DNA from: Escherichia phage HEMP5
DNA: 64,000 nt
Direction: 5' to 3' (one strand)
Sequence record: OR424388.1
Below the pieces are notes generated by a model, which saw only the letters and a list, made by a program, of their open reading frames with translations, was not told where the DNA came from and did no database searches. Positions within the stretch are counted from its first letter, which is position 1. Every line of letters begins with the position of its first letter. Both the position numbers and the translations under genes were made by a program. Below are positions 49,821 through 54,012 of the stretch, piece by piece.

Positions 49821-50414
49821 TTATTTCAGAGAATTAATATATTCCTGAACATCGGCAGAGGTAGTTTCAACCCCAGAAATATTGCCATTAAAGGTTTCAA
49901 CTCGGGCAAGAGTATCTTCAATATCAACTTTAGTCAGTGCTGCAATTTCAACTACATCATCAGCAGTACTAATTCCAAGGGCATTCGCAGCACGAGTTTC
50001 ACGGATATATTCCAATTTAACTGCAAGTTCTTGGCGAGCATCATCTAACTCAACTACTTTCTTGGCGATTTCAATTCGCATTTCAGCATAACCATCAGCT
50101 TTAGTAGTCAACTGTTCAGCTGTTCGACGATATAGCAAGCCGAGTTTAGCATGCATTGTTACATCTTGACCTTCAGAAAGAAGCTTGCGAATTTCACGCT
50201 CTTTTGATTCGGCTTGCTTATTCTTTTCGACAATAAGTTCACGAATACGCTTTTCTTCATTAATAGATTTAACGGAAGCAGTTTTTAGATCTTTAATCTT
50301 ATCAAGTAGTTTTGCTGCCGCAGCAGTATACTGTTCTTCAACAGATAGATTTTTAGCCATAGCAGAACCAAGTTTAGTGCGAATAAACTCAACAATTTTC
50401 TTCAGTGTGTTCAT
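49821..50414 (-). CDS. coiled-coil protein (possibly PspA/IM30-like)
   Basis: 197 aa; long helical heptad-rich sequence; AAGGAAA RBS; the PspA resemblance is by eye only. Confidence 0.7.
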
Positions 50415-50456
50415 AGTATTTCCTTAGGTTAATTAAGATTTAAAATCCATGAGATA

Positions 50457-50633
50457 TTATACTCCGGATAGGTTGTAAACTATTTCAACATCGCCTTTTG
50501 CTGCTTTATAACCTTCAGCCCAAGATACAACCGAGTTTTTATCCGAAGATTCAAATTCTGGCATTGGGCTTTCGCCAATGTTCACGCAGTATGTTTCTTC
50601 ATTTTCGTCGAACCAAATAATTAAAGTAGTCAT
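50457..50633 (-). CDS. small acidic protein (58 aa)
   Basis: Hand-translated; ATG with GGAG RBS; MTTLIIWFDENEETYCVNIGESPMPEFESSDKNS... Confidence 0.35.
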   Translation of the reverse strand: MTTLIIWFDENEETYCVNIGESPMPEFESSDKNSVVSWAEGYKAAKGDVEIVYNLSGV

Positions 50634-50701
50634 TTATTTCTCCGTTTCTGTATTTGTTTTGATAAGTCTATAATAACACCGTCCTTGGTGTTTGTACACA
50701 A

Positions 50702-50965
50702 TTATTTCATATTATTGAAATATTCTTCTGCGATTTCGTCGTTATCATGGTAAACTTTAGAAGACAGTTTAACATAACTTTCAGCAGTGAACATGTTAAT
50801 CACAACCTTTACAGTATACCACTGACCATCTTCATTACCCATTACTGCGTAAGTTTCAAACATCGGATGGTCAGGACCGATAACTTTAATATCATTCACT
50901 GTACGACCAAAATCTTCTGAAACACATTTCATAAAGAAGTTGAACAGTTCACCGTAATTATCCAT
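50702..50965 (-). CDS. hypothetical protein
   Basis: 87 aa from ATG with GGAG RBS downstream of an early promoter cassette. Confidence 0.6.
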   Translation of the reverse strand: MDNYGELFNFFMKCVSEDFGRTVNDIKVIGPDHPMFETYAVMGNEDGQWYTVKVVINMFTAESYVKLSSKVYHDNDEIAEEYFNNMK

Positions 50966-51008
50966 TTTATTCTCCAAGTTGTTTTCTGTATCAGTAGTTG
51001 ATAGTTGT

Positions 51009-51038
51009 ATAGTACCATGGAAGAACGGGGATGTAAAC
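51009..51038 (-). promoter_or_regulatory. T4-early-type promoter (repeated promoter-leader cassette copy)
   Basis: -35 GTTTAC, -10 TACTAT, 18-nt spacer. Confidence 0.55.
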
Positions 51039-51172
51039 CGTTTTGTGAAAAATTTTTTAAAAAGTTTTGGGGGAATTCTAGGGCAGGGAGGGGCAATTAA
51101 AGGATAGGATAATATATTATAAAGGATAGAAACTAAATGATGCCTAGAGAGGCCCAGAAAGGTCTAGATGCC

Positions 51173-51199
51173 AAAAAGCCCCAACCTTTCGGAAGGGGC
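51173..51199 (-). terminator. rho-independent terminator at the distal end of the tRNA/stable RNA transcription unit
   Basis: GCCCC...GGGGC stem with an inner CC-UUUC-GG hairpin, followed by U5 on the minus RNA. Confidence 0.55.
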
Positions 51200-51500
51200 T
51201 AAGCCTTGCGGCAACCTTGTCGGGGTTCCACCTGCTAAGGCAAGTGTTTGTACGAAACGCCGGGATTCGAACCCGATTATTAAGTAGTTGACGCTACTCA
51301 ATATTTTTAAAAGGCCATATCTCGACCATATCCGAACGTTCCGTCAAAAACGCTACTCGGCTTACGGCAAAGATATTTCCTCGAATCGATAATTCGGTGC
51401 GCCGTTTCTGCTGTGATATAAGGGGGCATTAACAAAACATAAAGATTTATTAATGCCAGTCCTTAAACAGGGAACATCAGTCCGACGACTTGCCGGTAGC
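51200..51500 (-). ncRNA. region likely encoding the small stable RNAs that follow the tRNAs in T-even phages (RNA C/D-like)
   Basis: No ORF; contains a tRNA-like T-arm (CGGGUUCGAAUCCCG at about 51261-51276) without a matching acceptor stem; boundaries approximate. Confidence 0.35.
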
Positions 51501-51516
51501 GACCCGGCTTCTTGTT

Positions 51517-51591
51517 TGGTATCCCGCCCTGGGATCGAACCAGGACCGCAAACTTAGAAGGATCGTATGCTATCCATTACACCAGCGGGAC
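51517..51591 (-). tRNA. tRNA-Arg (anticodon UCU), CCA encoded
   Basis: Hand-folded cloverleaf: 7-bp acceptor stem, T-arm CCUGG-UUCGAUC-CCAGG, anticodon loop CUUCUAA. Confidence 0.8.
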
Positions 51592-52213
51592 GTAATTTAT
51601 TTAAAAGACAAGACAAATCGGAAATCTCATCTTTTTCTAAAACTACCAAATTTTCTAAAGCTTTCCATTTACAAAGATCTCTATCTCTTTTATATCCTTT
51701 GACTTCTATATAAAAATCATAAGTGGGTAAATAAAAATCAGGAAAATAGAGATGTTCTGAACCTTCCCATTCGTAAGGAATTGGCTTTATTTTATTAGTA
51801 TATTTGATATTGTGTTCTTTTAAAAACTTAGCAACTTTTAATTCCCAGGTCCCTTTAAATTTAAACCCGTCAAACTCATATGTTTTTACTCGACCAGAAA
51901 CATTAGAAGCAGAATATGAATCAGGATTATCAAGAACAGCTTGCCGCATTCTTTTAGAATGTGCTTCTTTGCGTTCATTAGACCATACATATCCAGTATT
52001 GGCTTTTCTAAGTTTTTCTCTAGTTTTATCAGAGACTTTTATTTCTTTACCTAGTTCTTTGGCTTTGGTAAATTGATTACTACCTTTAAGACCATAACGA
52101 GGGTTATTAGGGCCGCTCATATCTAATCTATTTGGGTTAGATTTGCACCGTTTTTCATGCTGCTTTAGTGAATTTAAATTTTTACATTCTTTAGAACAAT
52201 ATTGACAAAGCAT
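51554..52213 (-). CDS. putative nuclease with N-terminal C2HC zinc finger and C-terminal PD-(D/E)xK-like motif; possible free-standing homing-type endonuclease
   Basis: 219 aa from ATG with GGAG RBS; CQYCSKECKNLNSLKQHEKRC and HLYFPDFYLP...DFYIEVKGYK; the last about 12 codons overlap the 5' end of tRNA-Arg; no GIY-YIG motif. Confidence 0.65.
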   Translation of the reverse strand: MLCQYCSKECKNLNSLKQHEKRCKSNPNRLDMSGPNNPRYGLKGSNQFTKAKELGKEIKVSDKTREKLRKANTGYVWSNERKEAHSKRMRQAVLDNPDSYSASNVSGRVKTYEFDGFKFKGTWELKVAKFLKEHNIKYTNKIKPIPYEWEGSEHLYFPDFYLPTYDFYIEVKGYKRDRDLCKWKALENLVVLEKDEISDLSCLLNKLRPAGVMDSIRSF

Positions 52214-52282
52214 AATTTTCTCCATGAATTTTATATAGATATTTATTCATGGAGAAGTTGACTGCTCTACCTAATCAAAATA

Positions 52283-52356
52283 TGGCCCAGACCAGATTTG
52301 AACTGGTAACCTTTCCCTTATGAGGGGACTGCTGCTAACCATTGAGCTACAGGGCC
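52283..52356 (-). tRNA. tRNA-Ile (anticodon CAU, lysidine-type; formally could be Met)
   Basis: Cloverleaf with T-arm ACCAG-UUCAAAU-CUGGU and anticodon loop CUCAUAA; one U-U mismatch in the acceptor stem. Confidence 0.75.
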
Positions 52357-52362
52357 TTGATA

Positions 52363-52435
52363 TGCTGATTGACGGAATCGAACCGCCGACCTTCTCATTA
52401 CAAGTGAGTTGCTCTACCTACTAAGCTAAATCAGC
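52363..52435 (-). tRNA. tRNA-Thr (anticodon UGU)
   Basis: Cloverleaf with T-arm GGCGG-UUCGAUU-CCGUC and anticodon loop CUUGUAA. Confidence 0.8.
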
Positions 52436-52440
52436 AAAAC

Positions 52441-52530
52441 TGGCGGAGGCGATAGGATTTGAACCTATGAGTCGCCGGAGCGACTGCCGGTTTTCAAGAC
52501 CGGTGCATTAAACCACTCTGCCACGCCTCC
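52441..52530 (-). tRNA. tRNA-Ser (anticodon UGA), class II with long variable arm, CCA encoded
   Basis: 90 nt; acceptor GGAGGCG/CGCCUCC; anticodon stem CCGGU/ACCGG with loop CUUGAAA. Confidence 0.85.
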
Positions 52531-52532
52531 AG

Positions 52533-52606
52533 TCTCCATACAAGGATTTGAACCTTGGACCTCCTGATCCCAAATCAGGCGCTCTACCAAACTGAGCTAC
52601 ACGGAG
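52533..52606 (-). tRNA. tRNA-Pro (anticodon UGG)
   Basis: T-arm CAAGG-UUCAAAU-CCUUG; anticodon stem CCUGA/UCAGG with loop UUUGGGA. Confidence 0.85.
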
Positions 52607-52616
52607 TAAATTAAAT

Positions 52617-52690
<74 letters not shown>

Positions 52691-52695
52691 AAATT

Positions 52696-52782
52696 TGGTG
52701 CGAGAAGTGGGACTCGAACCCACAAGGAAATCATTCCGCAGCATTTTAAGTGCTGTGCCTTTACCAATTTGACCATTCTCGC
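52696..52782 (-). tRNA. tRNA-Leu (anticodon UAA), class II, CCA encoded
   Basis: 87 nt; acceptor GCGAGAA/UUCUCGC; anticodon stem CAGCA/UGCUG with loop CUUAAAA; first gene of the cluster. Confidence 0.85.
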
Positions 52783-52788
52783 GCTATA

Positions 52789-53397
52789 TTATTTATTACG
52801 TGAAAAAGACTGTTCTATCAATTCTGGACACTTTCGTTCTATCCATTTTCTAGCTTTTTGTGGGCTTATACCTATTATTTTAGCAGCTTTACTAACCCAT
52901 CCAAATTTAGAATAATCGATTTTAACTAATTCTTCGTAAATTTCATCAGTTAAAATCTTTTCATTAATATTTACCAGTAAATGATATAATTTATTATCAT
53001 TAGCAATTTTAATGAATCTTTTATAGTTTCCGCCTTTACTTAAACCTAATGAAGTAATTGCAGATGATATAGTAGCCGAATTTAATAGTGCGTTTAAAAT
53101 TTCTTCATCACTAACATTATAACGCTTTCTATTATTTTTAATATTTTTACCAGCAAAAGTATCAGTTTGCGAATGGCAATTTGGACATAATAATCTTAAA
53201 TTTGATTTAAGATGATTTTTGTTATTTCCATCAATATGGTCTAATTGTAGAACAATATGCTTATTTTGCCATTTTGAAATTTTACAAATTGCGCACTCAT
53301 ATGGAAAAATATTTTCTTTTATTATTTTGTCTTTCAGCTTTCCTGTACTAAAATTTGGATGTTTTCCTTCAAAAATTTCAGCTAATTTAGTATCCAT
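52789..53397 (-). CDS. HNH-family endonuclease (free-standing homing-endonuclease-like)
   Basis: 202 aa from ATG (the six-frame ORF begins at an upstream TTG); HNH motif HLDHIDGNNKNHLKSNLRLLCPNCH; stop abuts the tRNA-Leu 5' end. Confidence 0.8.
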   Translation of the reverse strand: MDTKLAEIFEGKHPNFSTGKLKDKIIKENIFPYECAICKISKWQNKHIVLQLDHIDGNNKNHLKSNLRLLCPNCHSQTDTFAGKNIKNNRKRYNVSDEEILNALLNSATISSAITSLGLSKGGNYKRFIKIANDNKLYHLLVNINEKILTDEIYEELVKIDYSKFGWVSKAAKIIGISPQKARKWIERKCPELIEQSFSRNK

Positions 53398-53496
53398 AAT
53401 ATGATTCCCAATTATTAACAAAGGCTCTCAAACAAGAACCCTTGATGATAGAGGGTATTAATCAGTGCGGTATGAGTTAATAATAACAAATAATTC

Positions 53497-54012
53497 TTAA
53501 AGCAAATTAAACATTTTAACGGTAGGCAAAACAATTTCTTCTTCTATATAAGAGTATTTAACACTCTCAACTACACGCAAAAAATCATAATCATAATACT
53601 CAGAAGCATTACCTAAAATATTAATAAGTCCTTCAAGCACTTTATTACCATTCACAAAGAATAAGTCAAATACACGTTCTTCATCTTCTTCAGATTTATT
53701 ACCAAGATCAACTTCTATGCGAAAGACCTTTTTAATGAATTCTGGATAAAGCTGGTCTGAGAACAGTCCTTCAACTAAGTATTCATAAATAAAAAGAGAT
53801 TGCTCGCTGAACAAACCATTACCACAATAGCGCTCAATTTTAGTACTAGAATATCTGCTTTTAAACTTCTTTAAAAGATACTGAAATTGTAAGATTTCAT
53901 GCTCTTCTACGCCAAACAGTGTTTTGGTTTTATAGTTGTCACCATCATTTTCCCAGGTAGTGACATCAATTACGTAGCCCTGCGGAATTGTAGTACCTAA
54001 ACAAATATTCAT
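53497..54012 (-). CDS. hypothetical protein
   Basis: 171 aa; ATG start. Confidence 0.65.
   Translation of the reverse strand: MNICLGTTIPQGYVIDVTTWENDGDNYKTKTLFGVEEHEILQFQYLLKKFKSRYSSTKIERYCGNGLFSEQSLFIYEYLVEGLFSDQLYPEFIKKVFRIEVDLGNKSEEDEERVFDLFFVNGNKVLEGLINILGNASEYYDYDFLRVVESVKYSYIEEEIVLPTVKMFNLL

Follow-up and report, generated by a model that had tools for sequence, protein, structure and literature searches.

A probable free-standing homing endonuclease with a T7 endonuclease I-type nuclease domain in the tRNA cluster of Escherichia phage HEMP5

We analyzed a 64,000-nt stretch of DNA from Escherichia phage HEMP5 (OR424388.1; hereafter, the window), and found in its tRNA cluster an open reading frame (ORF) that probably encodes a free-standing homing endonuclease of an uncharacterized family specialized on tRNA genes. 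Both the DNA cleavage activity of the product and its target are points that we infer. Judged from sequence, the family combines an N-terminal C2HC zinc finger, NUMOD3-like helices, and a C-terminal PD-(D/E)XK nuclease domain of the T7 endonuclease I type. A preliminary description of this DNA had raised the possibility that a different family of free-standing homing endonucleases occupied the segB insertion hotspot and, in agreement, the product was a predicted nuclease unrelated to SegB, its gene was sporadically distributed, and clean empty sites were identified. Our literature search, whose coverage was incomplete, retrieved no paper on this architecture as a homing endonuclease.

The gene and its product

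The ORF of 219 aa had been placed between tRNA-Ile and tRNA-Arg, where T4 carries the GIY-YIG gene segB, and this was indeed the arrangement observed: it lies on the minus strand, which had been left unstated, between a tRNA gene with a CAT anticodon and tRNA-Arg(TCT), exactly the Ile/Arg slot of T4 (Table 1), and is co-directional with the tRNA operon. From the first in-frame ATG (52225), the ORF would span 51554-52225 and encode 223 aa, i.e., four additional residues; the 219-aa form starts at the ATG that follows a GGAG Shine-Dalgarno sequence, and is the one annotated in GenBank records. Phage vB_Eco_F25 encodes an 'endonuclease I' with 100% identity to the product, which also matched PHROG 15137, 'endonuclease' (E=1e-40), and PHROG 9019, 'Holliday junction resolvase' (E=2e-10). 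When the cluster was compared with those that contain segB (T4) or lack it (VEc74 and fDHCT2), the same Ile/Arg slot was found with alternative contents, and the cassette of the window stands where T4 has the segB cassette and VEc74, with no homing endonuclease gene, has a tRNA-Tyr/Asn segment. The Rfam scan of the window region at the gathering threshold detected tRNAs only.

Table 1. Features of the endonuclease locus in the window
Feature	Position	Strand	Remarks
tRNA, anticodon CAT	52283..52356	minus	Identical to T4 tRNA-Ile, intact
Mobile cassette	51600..52274	minus	About 675 nt; apparent old tRNA remnant, regulatory hairpin, and ORF body
Candidate tRNA 5'-half remnant	52253..52274	minus	TTAGGTAGAGCAGTCAACTTCT; 3' part of D-arm, anticodon stem, CTTCT loop
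Predicted RNA hairpin	52218..52256	minus	12-bp stem, UUCUCCAUGAAU / AUUCAUGGAGAA
Late-promoter-like box	52240..52247	minus	AATAAATA; start of hairpin loop, 7/8 match to T4 box TATAAATA
Endonuclease ORF	51554..52213	minus	219 aa, MLCQYC...IRSF, then stop
N-terminal C2HC zinc finger	52145..52207	minus	C3, C6, H19, C23
Two NUMOD3-like helices	51929..52042	minus	Residues ~58-95; VSDKTREKLRKA... and ERKEAHSKRMRQAV
Conserved motif	51884..51928	minus	NPDSYSASNVSGRVK; residues 96-110
PD-(D/E)XK nuclease domain	51614..51880	minus	Residues ~112-200
Catalytic candidates	51842-51844; 51737-51739; 51704-51706; 51698-51700	minus	E124; D159; E170; K172
C-terminal tail	51554..51599	minus	...NKLRPAGVMDSIRSF, then stop; ATTAC leader and first 38 nt of tRNA-Arg, backbone shared with T4
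tRNA-Arg(TCT)	51517..51591	minus	T4-type allele, intact

The N-terminal C2HC finger and the C-terminal PD...EVK motif, both reported in the preliminary description, were supported by their conservation in a set of 46 homologs with 43-84% identity. Among the zinc ligands, C3, C6, and H19 were invariant, and C23 was at least 90% conserved; the finger was modeled with a pLDDT of 93-97, and family members matched the Pfam entries zf-C2H2_jaz (16/46) and zf-C2H2 (9/46). The two NUMOD3-like helices, predicted at residues 62-72 and 79-95, are presumed to be a DNA-binding linker. Pfam NUMOD3 was matched by ten of the 46 members, with a best E of 1.4e-5, and no match to this entry was obtained with the window protein at E<1. 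Within the motif NPDSYSASNVSGRVK, modeled with lower confidence (pLDDT ~63), P97, N104, and G107 were invariant in the 46 homologs, and R108 and K110 were at least 90% conserved. In the nuclease domain, D159, E170, and K172 of the PD...EVK motif were invariant across the same set, as was E124. The conserved part of the protein stops near residue 200, and the C-terminal tails differ freely among active-looking homologs.

Searching the PDB by sequence gave T7 endonuclease I as the sole match (E=1.4e-5; 2e-6 with a profile), and its residues E20, D55, E65, and K67 aligned with E124, D159, E170, and K172 of the window protein. The Pfam family Phage_endo_I (PF05367) was matched by 33 of the 46 homologs at E<0.01 (best 8.8e-7), and the window protein scored 21.7 bits against a gathering cut-off of 29.1; by the Pfam criterion, its sequence is that of a relative of PF05367 rather than a member. 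The restriction-endonuclease-like fold that had been proposed for inspection was found in the predicted structure, with an alpha/beta core and D...(D/E)xK on the central sheet, as in the PD-(D/E)XK superfamily, and the predicted fold is closest to that of the homing endonuclease I-Bth0305I. Foldseek gave no significant match in the PDB, the best being generic PD-(D/E)XK nucleases at E=0.02, and NCBIfam returned nothing beyond a sub-threshold restriction-endonuclease match. The reported lack of a GIY-YIG motif was also seen here, as no GIY-YIG entry of Pfam or NCBIfam was matched, and kinship with SegB was rejected (BLASTP against T4 SegB, E=0.5); T4 SegB matched the NCBIfam entry TIGR01453.

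Over its final 38 nt, the ORF coincides with nucleotides 1-38 of tRNA-Arg, as the earlier claim of a 38-nt overlap had it. The stop codon TAA corresponds to T36-A37-A38 of this tRNA, i.e., the last anticodon base and two loop bases, and homology to T4 resumes at 51599; the C-terminal tail is unconserved among homologs. Comparison with an 84%-identical relative (locus L006), in which the ORF ends at its own stop 18 nt upstream of this tRNA-Arg, indicated that the overlap arose via a frameshifting 26-nt deletion. This deletion took the original stop codon, and translation consequently ends at T36-A37-A38. ORFs running into the downstream tRNA were observed in at least 15 loci, with either T8A9G10 or T36A37A38 as the stop.

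The predicted hairpin buries the Shine-Dalgarno sequence GGAG (52220-52223) of the start codon at 52211-52213. Its minimum free energy was -23 kcal/mol (z=-4.1), and none of 200 shuffled sequences was equally stable. Equivalent hairpins were present in loci L003, L004, L006, L007, L012, and L028, and the same module has been described for I-TevI/II/III, segB, and mobE (PMC2988022). The loop box ATAAATA is conserved in the family hairpins: the exact T4 late box TATAAATA was found in L004 and L023, AATAAATA in L003, L006, L007, and L027, and CATAAATA in L030. From its sequence, the AATAAATA box of the window would act as a promoter.

Distribution and insertion sites

Among 908 T4-like records matching the locus, the ORF was present at 97% identity or above only in F25, IME341, and EcWhh-1; a family gene was found in 6/327 Kuttervirus-type records and in nine of the 108 records that matched an Acinetobacter phage locus. 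As in homing genes, the distribution was sporadic among close relatives and the presence/absence alleles were precise, and there was evidence that the gene moved horizontally along with DNA flanking it. Dhakavirus IME341 and the window, which is of the Tequatrovirus type, showed 97% identity exactly over tRNA-Ile, the ORF, and tRNA-Arg (52361-51515), and only patches of identity within divergent DNA beyond these limits. The idea that IME341 imported the flanking tRNAs along with the gene was revised: Dhakaviruses without a homing endonuclease gene already have near-identical copies of tRNA-Ile and tRNA-Arg, so it is more plausible that the conserved tRNAs act as homology arms.

Three clean, base-precise empty sites were found, in fDHCT2, ST-W77, and Stupor. 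In Dhakavirus fDHCT2, the site is a 5-nt Ile/Arg spacer (...CACCA ACTAT GTCCCG...), and in the lineage of the window the cassette is intergenic, located in the 5-nt spacer with an intact tRNA-Ile on one side and an intact tRNA-Arg on the other. In ST-W77 the tRNA-Met is intact; PhaxI retains its nucleotides 1-27, followed by an 808-nt cassette that brings its own foreign tRNA-Met and replaces most of the original one. Stupor has an intact tRNA(CAT); in Acinetobacter phage Apostate, an insert of 664 nt, of which only 38 are non-coding, splits this tRNA right after the anticodon, the flanks of both phages being 99-100% identical. Relatives of the window gene are located in tRNA genes at or beside the anticodon loop, and the outcome is either a split tRNA, as in Apostate, or, as in PhaxI, a dead tRNA 5' half and an intact tRNA supplied downstream. 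The family copies of PX29 and AsFcp_4 are broken into pieces.

Nearly all of the approximately 30 full-length family loci were co-oriented within tRNA arrays. The next downstream tRNA carried the CAT anticodon in at least 11 of 19 cases versus a background of 10% (P=4e-7, which is optimistic because the loci are not phylogenetically independent). Upstream of the ORF, tRNA 5' remnants were detected in at least ten loci by BLAST, which is biased to canonical tRNA sequences, and the clear breaks fell around positions 26-36, for the most part within the anticodon loop; tRNA 3' halves directly followed the ORF in at least eight loci. The window cassette also appears to carry a tRNA remnant of an earlier site. 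The candidate is short, and BLAST alone gives it no significance; other family loci have longer, unequivocal tRNA 5' remnants at this position, with which it aligns, and the 10-mer GGTAGAGCAG within the candidate occurs once in the 64-kb window. HNH and GIY-YIG genes are likewise drawn to tRNA clusters, so the association with tRNAs may in part stem from tolerance of insertions and not from target specificity.

The proposal that the downstream tRNA linked to the gene is an allele that has a non-canonical D-stem and resists cleavage found no statistical support: canonical D-stems were found in 0/18 linked tRNAs versus 59/367 others (P=0.09), and among CAT tRNAs in none of 12 linked versus two of 27 others. 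The synteny-defined target tRNAs of ST-W77 and Stupor both have canonical D-arms (n=2).

In Apostate, CkP1, L007, PX29, and other members with the split arrangement, the tRNA is cut exactly after the anticodon, and the halves are intact and complementary. A permissive Rfam scan of loci L003, L004, L007, L010, L012, and L018 detected tRNAs only, with no group I/II intron or ribozyme; an intron-encoded enzyme of the I-Ssp6803I type was rejected on this basis and because the Apostate insert is almost wholly coding. It is very unlikely that the inserts are removed at the RNA level without a ribozyme, or that the halves work as a split tRNA; removal might proceed, for example, by endonucleolytic release and subsequent sealing by T4-type Pnk/RNA-ligase tRNA-repair enzymes. 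Undamaged tRNA halves are equally expected from a recent invasion of formerly intact genes.

In the mechanism that we propose for a homing endonuclease, the hairpin, according to the computed fold, would hide the ribosome-binding site in read-through transcripts, and the late-promoter-like box in its loop would generate transcripts without the 5' arm, so that translation would be limited to late infection, like that of I-TevI and segB. During mixed infection, the protein would then bind and cut the tRNA-gene region of a phage genome without the gene, and recombinational repair would copy the cassette, with the conserved flanking tRNA genes serving as homology arms.

Alternative explanations and implications

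The likeness to T7 endonuclease I could also mean that the ORF encodes a housekeeping Holliday-junction resolvase, like T7 gene 3, serving phage DNA maturation and not its own spread. That enzyme was the only PDB sequence match, with all catalytic residues conserved, records annotate the products as 'endonuclease I' or 'putative endodeoxyribonuclease I, Holliday junction resolvase', and the PHROG 9019 match points the same way. However, the gene is missing from approximately 99% of closely related phages and is thus not a core function, and T4-like phages resolve junctions with endonuclease VII (gp49). Together with the added zinc finger and NUMOD3-like DNA-binding modules, the missing C-terminal third of T7 endonuclease I, and the insertions precisely in tRNA genes with clean empty sites, this makes a resolvase role highly improbable. 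An action on RNA, i.e., processing or cleavage of tRNA precursors instead of DNA, is even harder to sustain, and we regard it as extremely improbable: the catalytic set is the metal-binding E/D/E/K that T7 endonuclease I and other DNA nucleases have, whereas splicing endonucleases use a Tyr/His/Lys triad. Empty-site comparisons reveal insertion events at the DNA level, and modules of the zinc-finger and NUMOD3 kinds are a usual feature of homing endonucleases that bind DNA (PMC3239194).

The window gene might instead be an inactive, stranded relic that persists by linkage, either because of the 26-nt deletion and the 15-residue foreign tail or because its targets are exhausted. The frameshift did change the C-terminus, and decay does occur in the family, as the fragmented copies of PX29 and AsFcp_4 illustrate, but the ORF is intact with all invariant residues present, and the conserved region ends ahead of the altered tail, in a part of the protein that varies freely across active-looking homologs. 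Moreover, phages of two genera share this allele at 97-100% identity, indicating recent spread after the deletion, so a relic is quite unlikely. A further reading keeps the homing-type endonuclease and holds that it is retained mainly for the benefit of the phage, in that its cuts in the tRNA array would promote recombination, exchange, or amplification of phage tRNA genes and so aid escape from tRNA-cleaving defences. In support of this, SegB, located in the same slot, cuts tRNA genes (PMC2330249), and SegB-driven tRNA-Tyr amplification defeats Septu (PMC13096335); the tRNA association of the window family is even tighter than that of SegB, and PhaxI-type cassettes bring a new tRNA-Met allele. 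Apostate-type insertions nonetheless destroy a tRNA instead of adding one, and the sporadic distribution equally fits a selfish element, so that phage benefit as the main reason is unlikely. This reading is compatible with the homing explanation and does not exclude it.

Homing endonucleases are at present divided among a few families; PMC6083498 lists six and adds one of the Endo VII type. If the DNA cleavage activity expected of the homing endonuclease is true, the window family would represent a further architecture, with zinc finger and NUMOD3 modules on a T7-endonuclease-I-type nuclease. It would also follow a different invasion route, straight into the tRNA anticodon loop without an intron, in an essential-looking gene, the phage either bearing the tRNA loss or receiving a replacement tRNA from the element. 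A second endonuclease family, unrelated to SegB, would be shuffling phage tRNA arrays, a topical matter given that SegB-driven tRNA rearrangement was recently shown to beat a tRNA-cleaving host defence. Nucleotides that are conserved in all tRNAs, T8A9G10 and T36A37A38, recur as stops, with mRNA and tRNA sharing sequence, and processing of the tRNA 5' end by RNase P would strip the mRNA of its stop codon. Nuclease engineering could profit from a modular and possibly dimeric PD-(D/E)XK nuclease whose DNA-binding modules are separable and, should the split-tRNA reading be true, the inserts would be a new kind of bacterial/phage tRNA intervening sequence with its own homing endonuclease.

Comparison with known systems

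T7 endonuclease I (gene 3, PF05367) was the only solved protein reachable by sequence, and both its four catalytic residues and the YxPDF...(E)xKG surroundings aligned with the window protein. It is a stand-alone protein of 149 aa, a structure-specific junction resolvase rather than a sequence-specific enzyme, and forms a domain-swapped dimer. The window protein, in contrast, has a nuclease domain without the C-terminal third, is fused to the zinc finger and NUMOD3-like modules, and shows the genomic behavior of a mobile element.

The EDxHD enzymes (I-Bth0305I and Hef) have the Vsr-type catalytic residues E, D, H, and D (PMC3239194). They share with the window protein the order of an N-terminal NUMOD-type DNA-binding region and a C-terminal restriction-fold nuclease; the window family differs in having E...PD...ExK and no invariant histidine in the catalytic region, and therefore lacks the EDxHD motif. 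The I-Bth0305I structure (3r3p) gave no match at the sequence level, even with a profile at E<=10, and this enzyme is encoded by an intron in recA, unlike the free-standing window gene. The accepted precedent for a PD-(D/E)XK fold in homing endonucleases is I-Ssp6803I (cited in PMC3239194). The window family has this catalytic fold in common with it, and the host of I-Ssp6803I is the intron of Synechocystis tRNA-fMet. I-Ssp6803I targets the region of the anticodon stem-loop in a tRNA gene with a CAT anticodon, which is where Apostate-type members of the window family are inserted.

In T4, segB fills the slot that the window gene has between tRNA-Ile and tRNA-Arg, and both share the flanks TATTTTGA...ATTAC. 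Like the window gene, segB is free-standing in a phage tRNA cluster, and a hairpin and late promoter govern its expression (PMC2988022), as would be the case in the window. The two proteins have different catalytic domains in opposite domain orders: SegB has an N-terminal GIY-YIG domain, and the window protein a C-terminal PD-(D/E)XK domain. SegB co-converts the tRNAs neighboring the genes that it targets (PMC2330249), and its homologs are associated with tRNAs across phages with no isotype preference (PMC13096335). The window family, unlike SegB, is enriched beside CAT and TCT tRNAs, and is often found within the tRNA gene itself.

A zinc-finger, endonuclease I-like protein between two tRNA genes

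The 219-aa open reading frame (ORF) described earlier between tRNA-Ile and tRNA-Arg was confirmed in place; it lies on the minus strand, and a Shine-Dalgarno (SD) sequence precedes this form. In T4, the GIY-YIG gene segB does lie exactly between the same two tRNAs, as had been stated.

Coordinates of the ORF and of tRNA and endonuclease genes in the window and in two compared loci
Feature	Coordinates	Strand	Remarks
Endonuclease ORF	51554-52225 from first ATG; 219-aa form from 52213	minus	GGAG at usual spacing before the 52213 start; 219-aa form is the GenBank annotation
tRNA-Arg(TCT)	51517-51591		ARAGORN and Rfam
tRNA, CAT anticodon	52283-52356		ARAGORN and Rfam; identical to T4 tRNA-Ile
HNH endonuclease gene	52789-53421	minus	phrog_14736, E=6e-124
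CTA tRNA, L004 (Apostate)	2345-2419
CTA tRNA, L058 (Stupor)	746-820

Pfam returned for the ORF protein only a sub-threshold Phage_endo_I match (21.7 bits; cut-off, 29.1 bits) and weak zinc-finger matches, and PHROGs assigned it to phrog_15137 'endonuclease' (E=1e-40). T7 endonuclease I was the sole match in the PDB sequence search (E=1.4e-5; 2e-6 with the family profile), its active-site residues E20, D55, E65, and K67 aligning with E124, D159, E170, and K172 of the ORF protein. These four residues were invariant among 46 aligned homologs (43-84% identity), bearing out the proposed C-terminal PD...(E)VK-like motif, and C3, C6, and H19 were invariant and C23 nearly so, in agreement with the proposed N-terminal C2HC finger. 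The middle motif NPDSYSxSNVSGRVK was strongly conserved, and the tail beyond about residue 200 showed no conservation. Phage_endo_I was matched by 33 of the 46 members, NUMOD3 by 10, and C2H2 fingers by many. Comparison with SegB revealed no kinship, and a SegB relationship was rejected, in agreement with the reported absence of a GIY-YIG motif. In the homolog alignment A1 (columns 1-60 and 100-140), proteins P0102, P0107, P0111, P0082, and P0105, which are 260-296 aa long, had one or two additional zinc fingers of the C2H2 type, N-terminal or internal, suggesting that the DNA-binding part varies in a modular way and, with it, possibly the target specificity.

Insertion alleles and empty sites

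The comparison with segB-bearing and segB-less clusters, proposed in the preliminary description, defined the cassette. Against the segB-bearing T4 and Pu-Krd-SF5, homology ended a few nt past tRNA-Ile (at TATTTTGA) and restarted at 51599 (ATTAC followed by tRNA-Arg), and therefore the cassette spans about 51600-52274; the final 46 nt of the ORF, with the stop codon, are backbone sequence. The ORF was lacking in Dhakavirus fDHCT2, where the same two tRNAs are intact and 5 nt apart (...CACCA ACTAT GTCCCG...), a base-precise empty site, and in Tequatrovirus VEc74, where the order is Ile-Tyr-Asn-Arg and the Ile and Arg alleles differ. Dhakavirus IME341 was 97% identical to the window exactly from tRNA-Ile to tRNA-Arg (52361-51515), with only patches of similarity outside, indicating that the cassette is shared across genera. 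The two tRNA haplotypes of Tequatroviruses are strongly different (VEc74 locus, 1421-1748; window, 51517-52356): the tRNA-Arg(TCT) and CAT tRNA of VEc74 resemble the T4/window alleles in loops and ends and differ in most stems, and the T4-type alleles travel with segB or with the ORF.

The ORF 3' end covers the first 38 nt of tRNA-Arg, as reported. In L006, the locus of an 84%-identical relative, the gene has its own TAA 18 nt ahead of the same tRNA-Arg, and a 26-nt deletion in the window lineage removed this stop, so that the ORF reads through ATTAC and tRNA positions 1-35 and ends at T36-A37-A38; the overlap is thus real but secondary. Upstream of the L006 homolog, positions 470-560 are tRNA-like, with a perfect CTCATAA anticodon loop, a T-arm, a CCA end, and an aberrant D-region; ARAGORN made no call there, and the stretch may represent a CAT tRNA that is degenerate or unusual. 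Within the window spacer, the sequence TTAGGTAGAGCAGTCAACTTCT aligned with tRNA 5' remnants of other family loci, and its 10-mer GGTAGAGCAG occurs once in the 64-kb window. With moderate confidence, we take this sequence for a remnant brought along from a previous site, which may have been a tRNA-Arg(TCT).

Two further pairs of phages gave precise alleles. In PhaxI, a cassette of 808 nt, made up of a hairpin, the ORF, an intact but different tRNA-Met, and 63 nt, replaces positions 28-70 of a tRNA-Met that is intact in ST-W77, leaving its first 27 nt. The tRNA(CAT) intact in Stupor is split in Apostate exactly 3' of the anticodon (...GGACTCAT/664 nt/(TA)ATCCATTGG...), the flanks being 99-100% identical; the ORF terminates at T36A37A38 in the tRNA 3' half, and just 38 nt of the insert are non-coding. 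An Rfam scan of six family loci found no intron or ribozyme. In these Acinetobacter Lazarusviruses, the tRNA(CAT) that is invaded directly follows a tRNA with a CTA anticodon (called 'tRNA-Pyl', amber-suppressor-type).

Association with tRNA genes and distribution

The survey took in annotated phage loci, 40 loci that the family alignment retrieved from IMG/VR, and four loci on metagenomic contigs. Nearly every full-length homolog was co-directional within a tRNA array; the ORF abutted or overlapped the downstream tRNA in about 25 loci, in at least 15 of them by 7-47 nt. The stop codon was formed by T8-A9-G10 in 10-nt overlaps (TAG in 4/5, TAA in 1/5), by T36-A37-A38 in 38/39-nt overlaps, and by a D-loop TAA or TAG in 15- and 16-nt overlaps. 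Of 19 lineages, at least 11 had a CAT anticodon in the adjacent tRNA, compared with a CAT share of 10% among all tRNAs of these loci (binomial P=4e-7, kinship ignored), and tRNA-Arg(TCT) was also a frequent neighbour. Moreover, at least 10 loci had, 35-60 nt upstream of the ORF, a tRNA 5' fragment with a D-arm; clear breaks lay near positions 26-36, for the most part within the anticodon loop. In at least eight loci, a tRNA 3' half directly followed the ORF. The idea of the linked tRNA as a resistant allele found no support in a statistical test.

Distribution was sporadic. Tequatrovirus vB_Eco_F25 has the ORF at 100% identity, Dhakavirus IME341 and EcWhh-1 have it at 97-98%, and it was missing from the remaining ~900 records of the phage collection matching its flanks. 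More distant homologs occurred in Karamvirus, Lazarusvirus, Angelvirus, Tulanevirus, Kuttervirus, and Kujavirus, and in metagenomes (478 proteins); the gene was present in 6 of 327 records of Kuttervirus-type phages and in 9 of 108 Acinetobacter-locus matches. The Aeromonas Angelvirus copies of PX29 (L010, 3001-3629) and AsFcp_4 (L014, 3001-3653) are degraded, with tblastn matches in two pieces, leftover ORFs of 116 and 141 aa, and a good tRNA 3' half still after the stop codon, which looks like the decay phase of the homing endonuclease life cycle.

The same tRNA cluster holds a homing-type HNH gene unrelated to the ORF. Its cassette (junctions at ~53400-53430 and 52783-52789, ending right at tRNA-Leu) destroyed tRNA-Gln, leaving the first 7 nt of the T4 gene (TGGGAAT/CATATTATG...). 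VEc74 and Pu-Krd-SF5 carry the HNH gene; T4 and F25 have tRNA-Gln without it, F25 with the zinc-finger/Endo I-like ORF. Of 50,697 phage genomes, none covered 80% or more of window 50400-53500, and none seems to pair the HNH gene at tRNA-Gln with the ORF at the Ile/Arg site. Elsewhere, an HNH gene lies between the two tRNA-Arg genes of Vibrio phage Kuja (L011, 1419-2048), and Escherichia phage Cba120 (H105) has a 'putative HNH homing endonuclease' at the position of PhaxI's Endo I-like gene. In general, phage tRNA clusters seem to receive endonuclease genes of several families. Downstream of tRNA-Arg, 51142-51516 (minus strand) is 93% identical to the T4 rnaD and rnaC region (small stable RNAs, species 2 and 1); it had no match at the Rfam gathering threshold, and Rfam holds no family for either RNA.

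Expression, proposed homing, and likeness to known systems

The GGAG is buried in a 12-bp hairpin directly upstream of the ORF start (MFE -23 kcal/mol, z=-4.1), and the hairpin loop starts with AATAAATA, a putative promoter by analogy. Among other T4-like lineages, six loci had a hairpin covering the SD, and seven had a (T/A/C)ATAAATA box. The same hairpin/late-start arrangement is known for I-TevI/II/III, segB, and Aeh1 mobE, and in control of the I-TevI/segB type, read-through RNA made early is not translated, whereas transcripts that start late inside the hairpin are (PMC2988022). Since an RNase P cut at the tRNA-Arg 5' end would remove the stop codon, ORF translation and tRNA-Arg maturation from one transcript are probably mutually exclusive, and this may limit ORF expression further.

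Collectively, the domains, catalytic residues, sporadic distribution, and precise insertion alleles support the suggestion of a free-standing homing endonuclease other than the SegB type. The enzyme would be expressed late and would cut tRNA-gene DNA in a Mg2+-dependent manner in genomes without the gene; the break would be repaired from a co-infecting genome that carries it, with conserved tRNA sequences as homology arms. For the window enzyme, candidate targets are the Ile/Arg junction of the fDHCT2 type and a canonical tRNA-Arg(TCT), the VEc74 allele for example.

Databases label the family 'endonuclease', 'endonuclease I', or 'hypothetical protein', and we found no account of it as a homing endonuclease in the literature searched, an earlier description being possible. 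It resembles SegB in its slot, its direction to tRNA genes, and its style of control (PMC2330249; PMC13096335; PMC2988022). It has its domain order and predicted fold in common with the EDxHD family, including phage Hef, whose enzymes have Vsr-type E/D/H/D residues (PMC3239194). Membership in that family was rejected, as ours has E...PD...ExK instead and 3r3p, the structure of the EDxHD enzyme I-Bth0305I, was unmatched by sequence. The active site is like that of T7 endonuclease I. The Apostate-type insertion site corresponds to that of the intron-encoded I-Ssp6803I, from which the Apostate-type member differs in having no intron.
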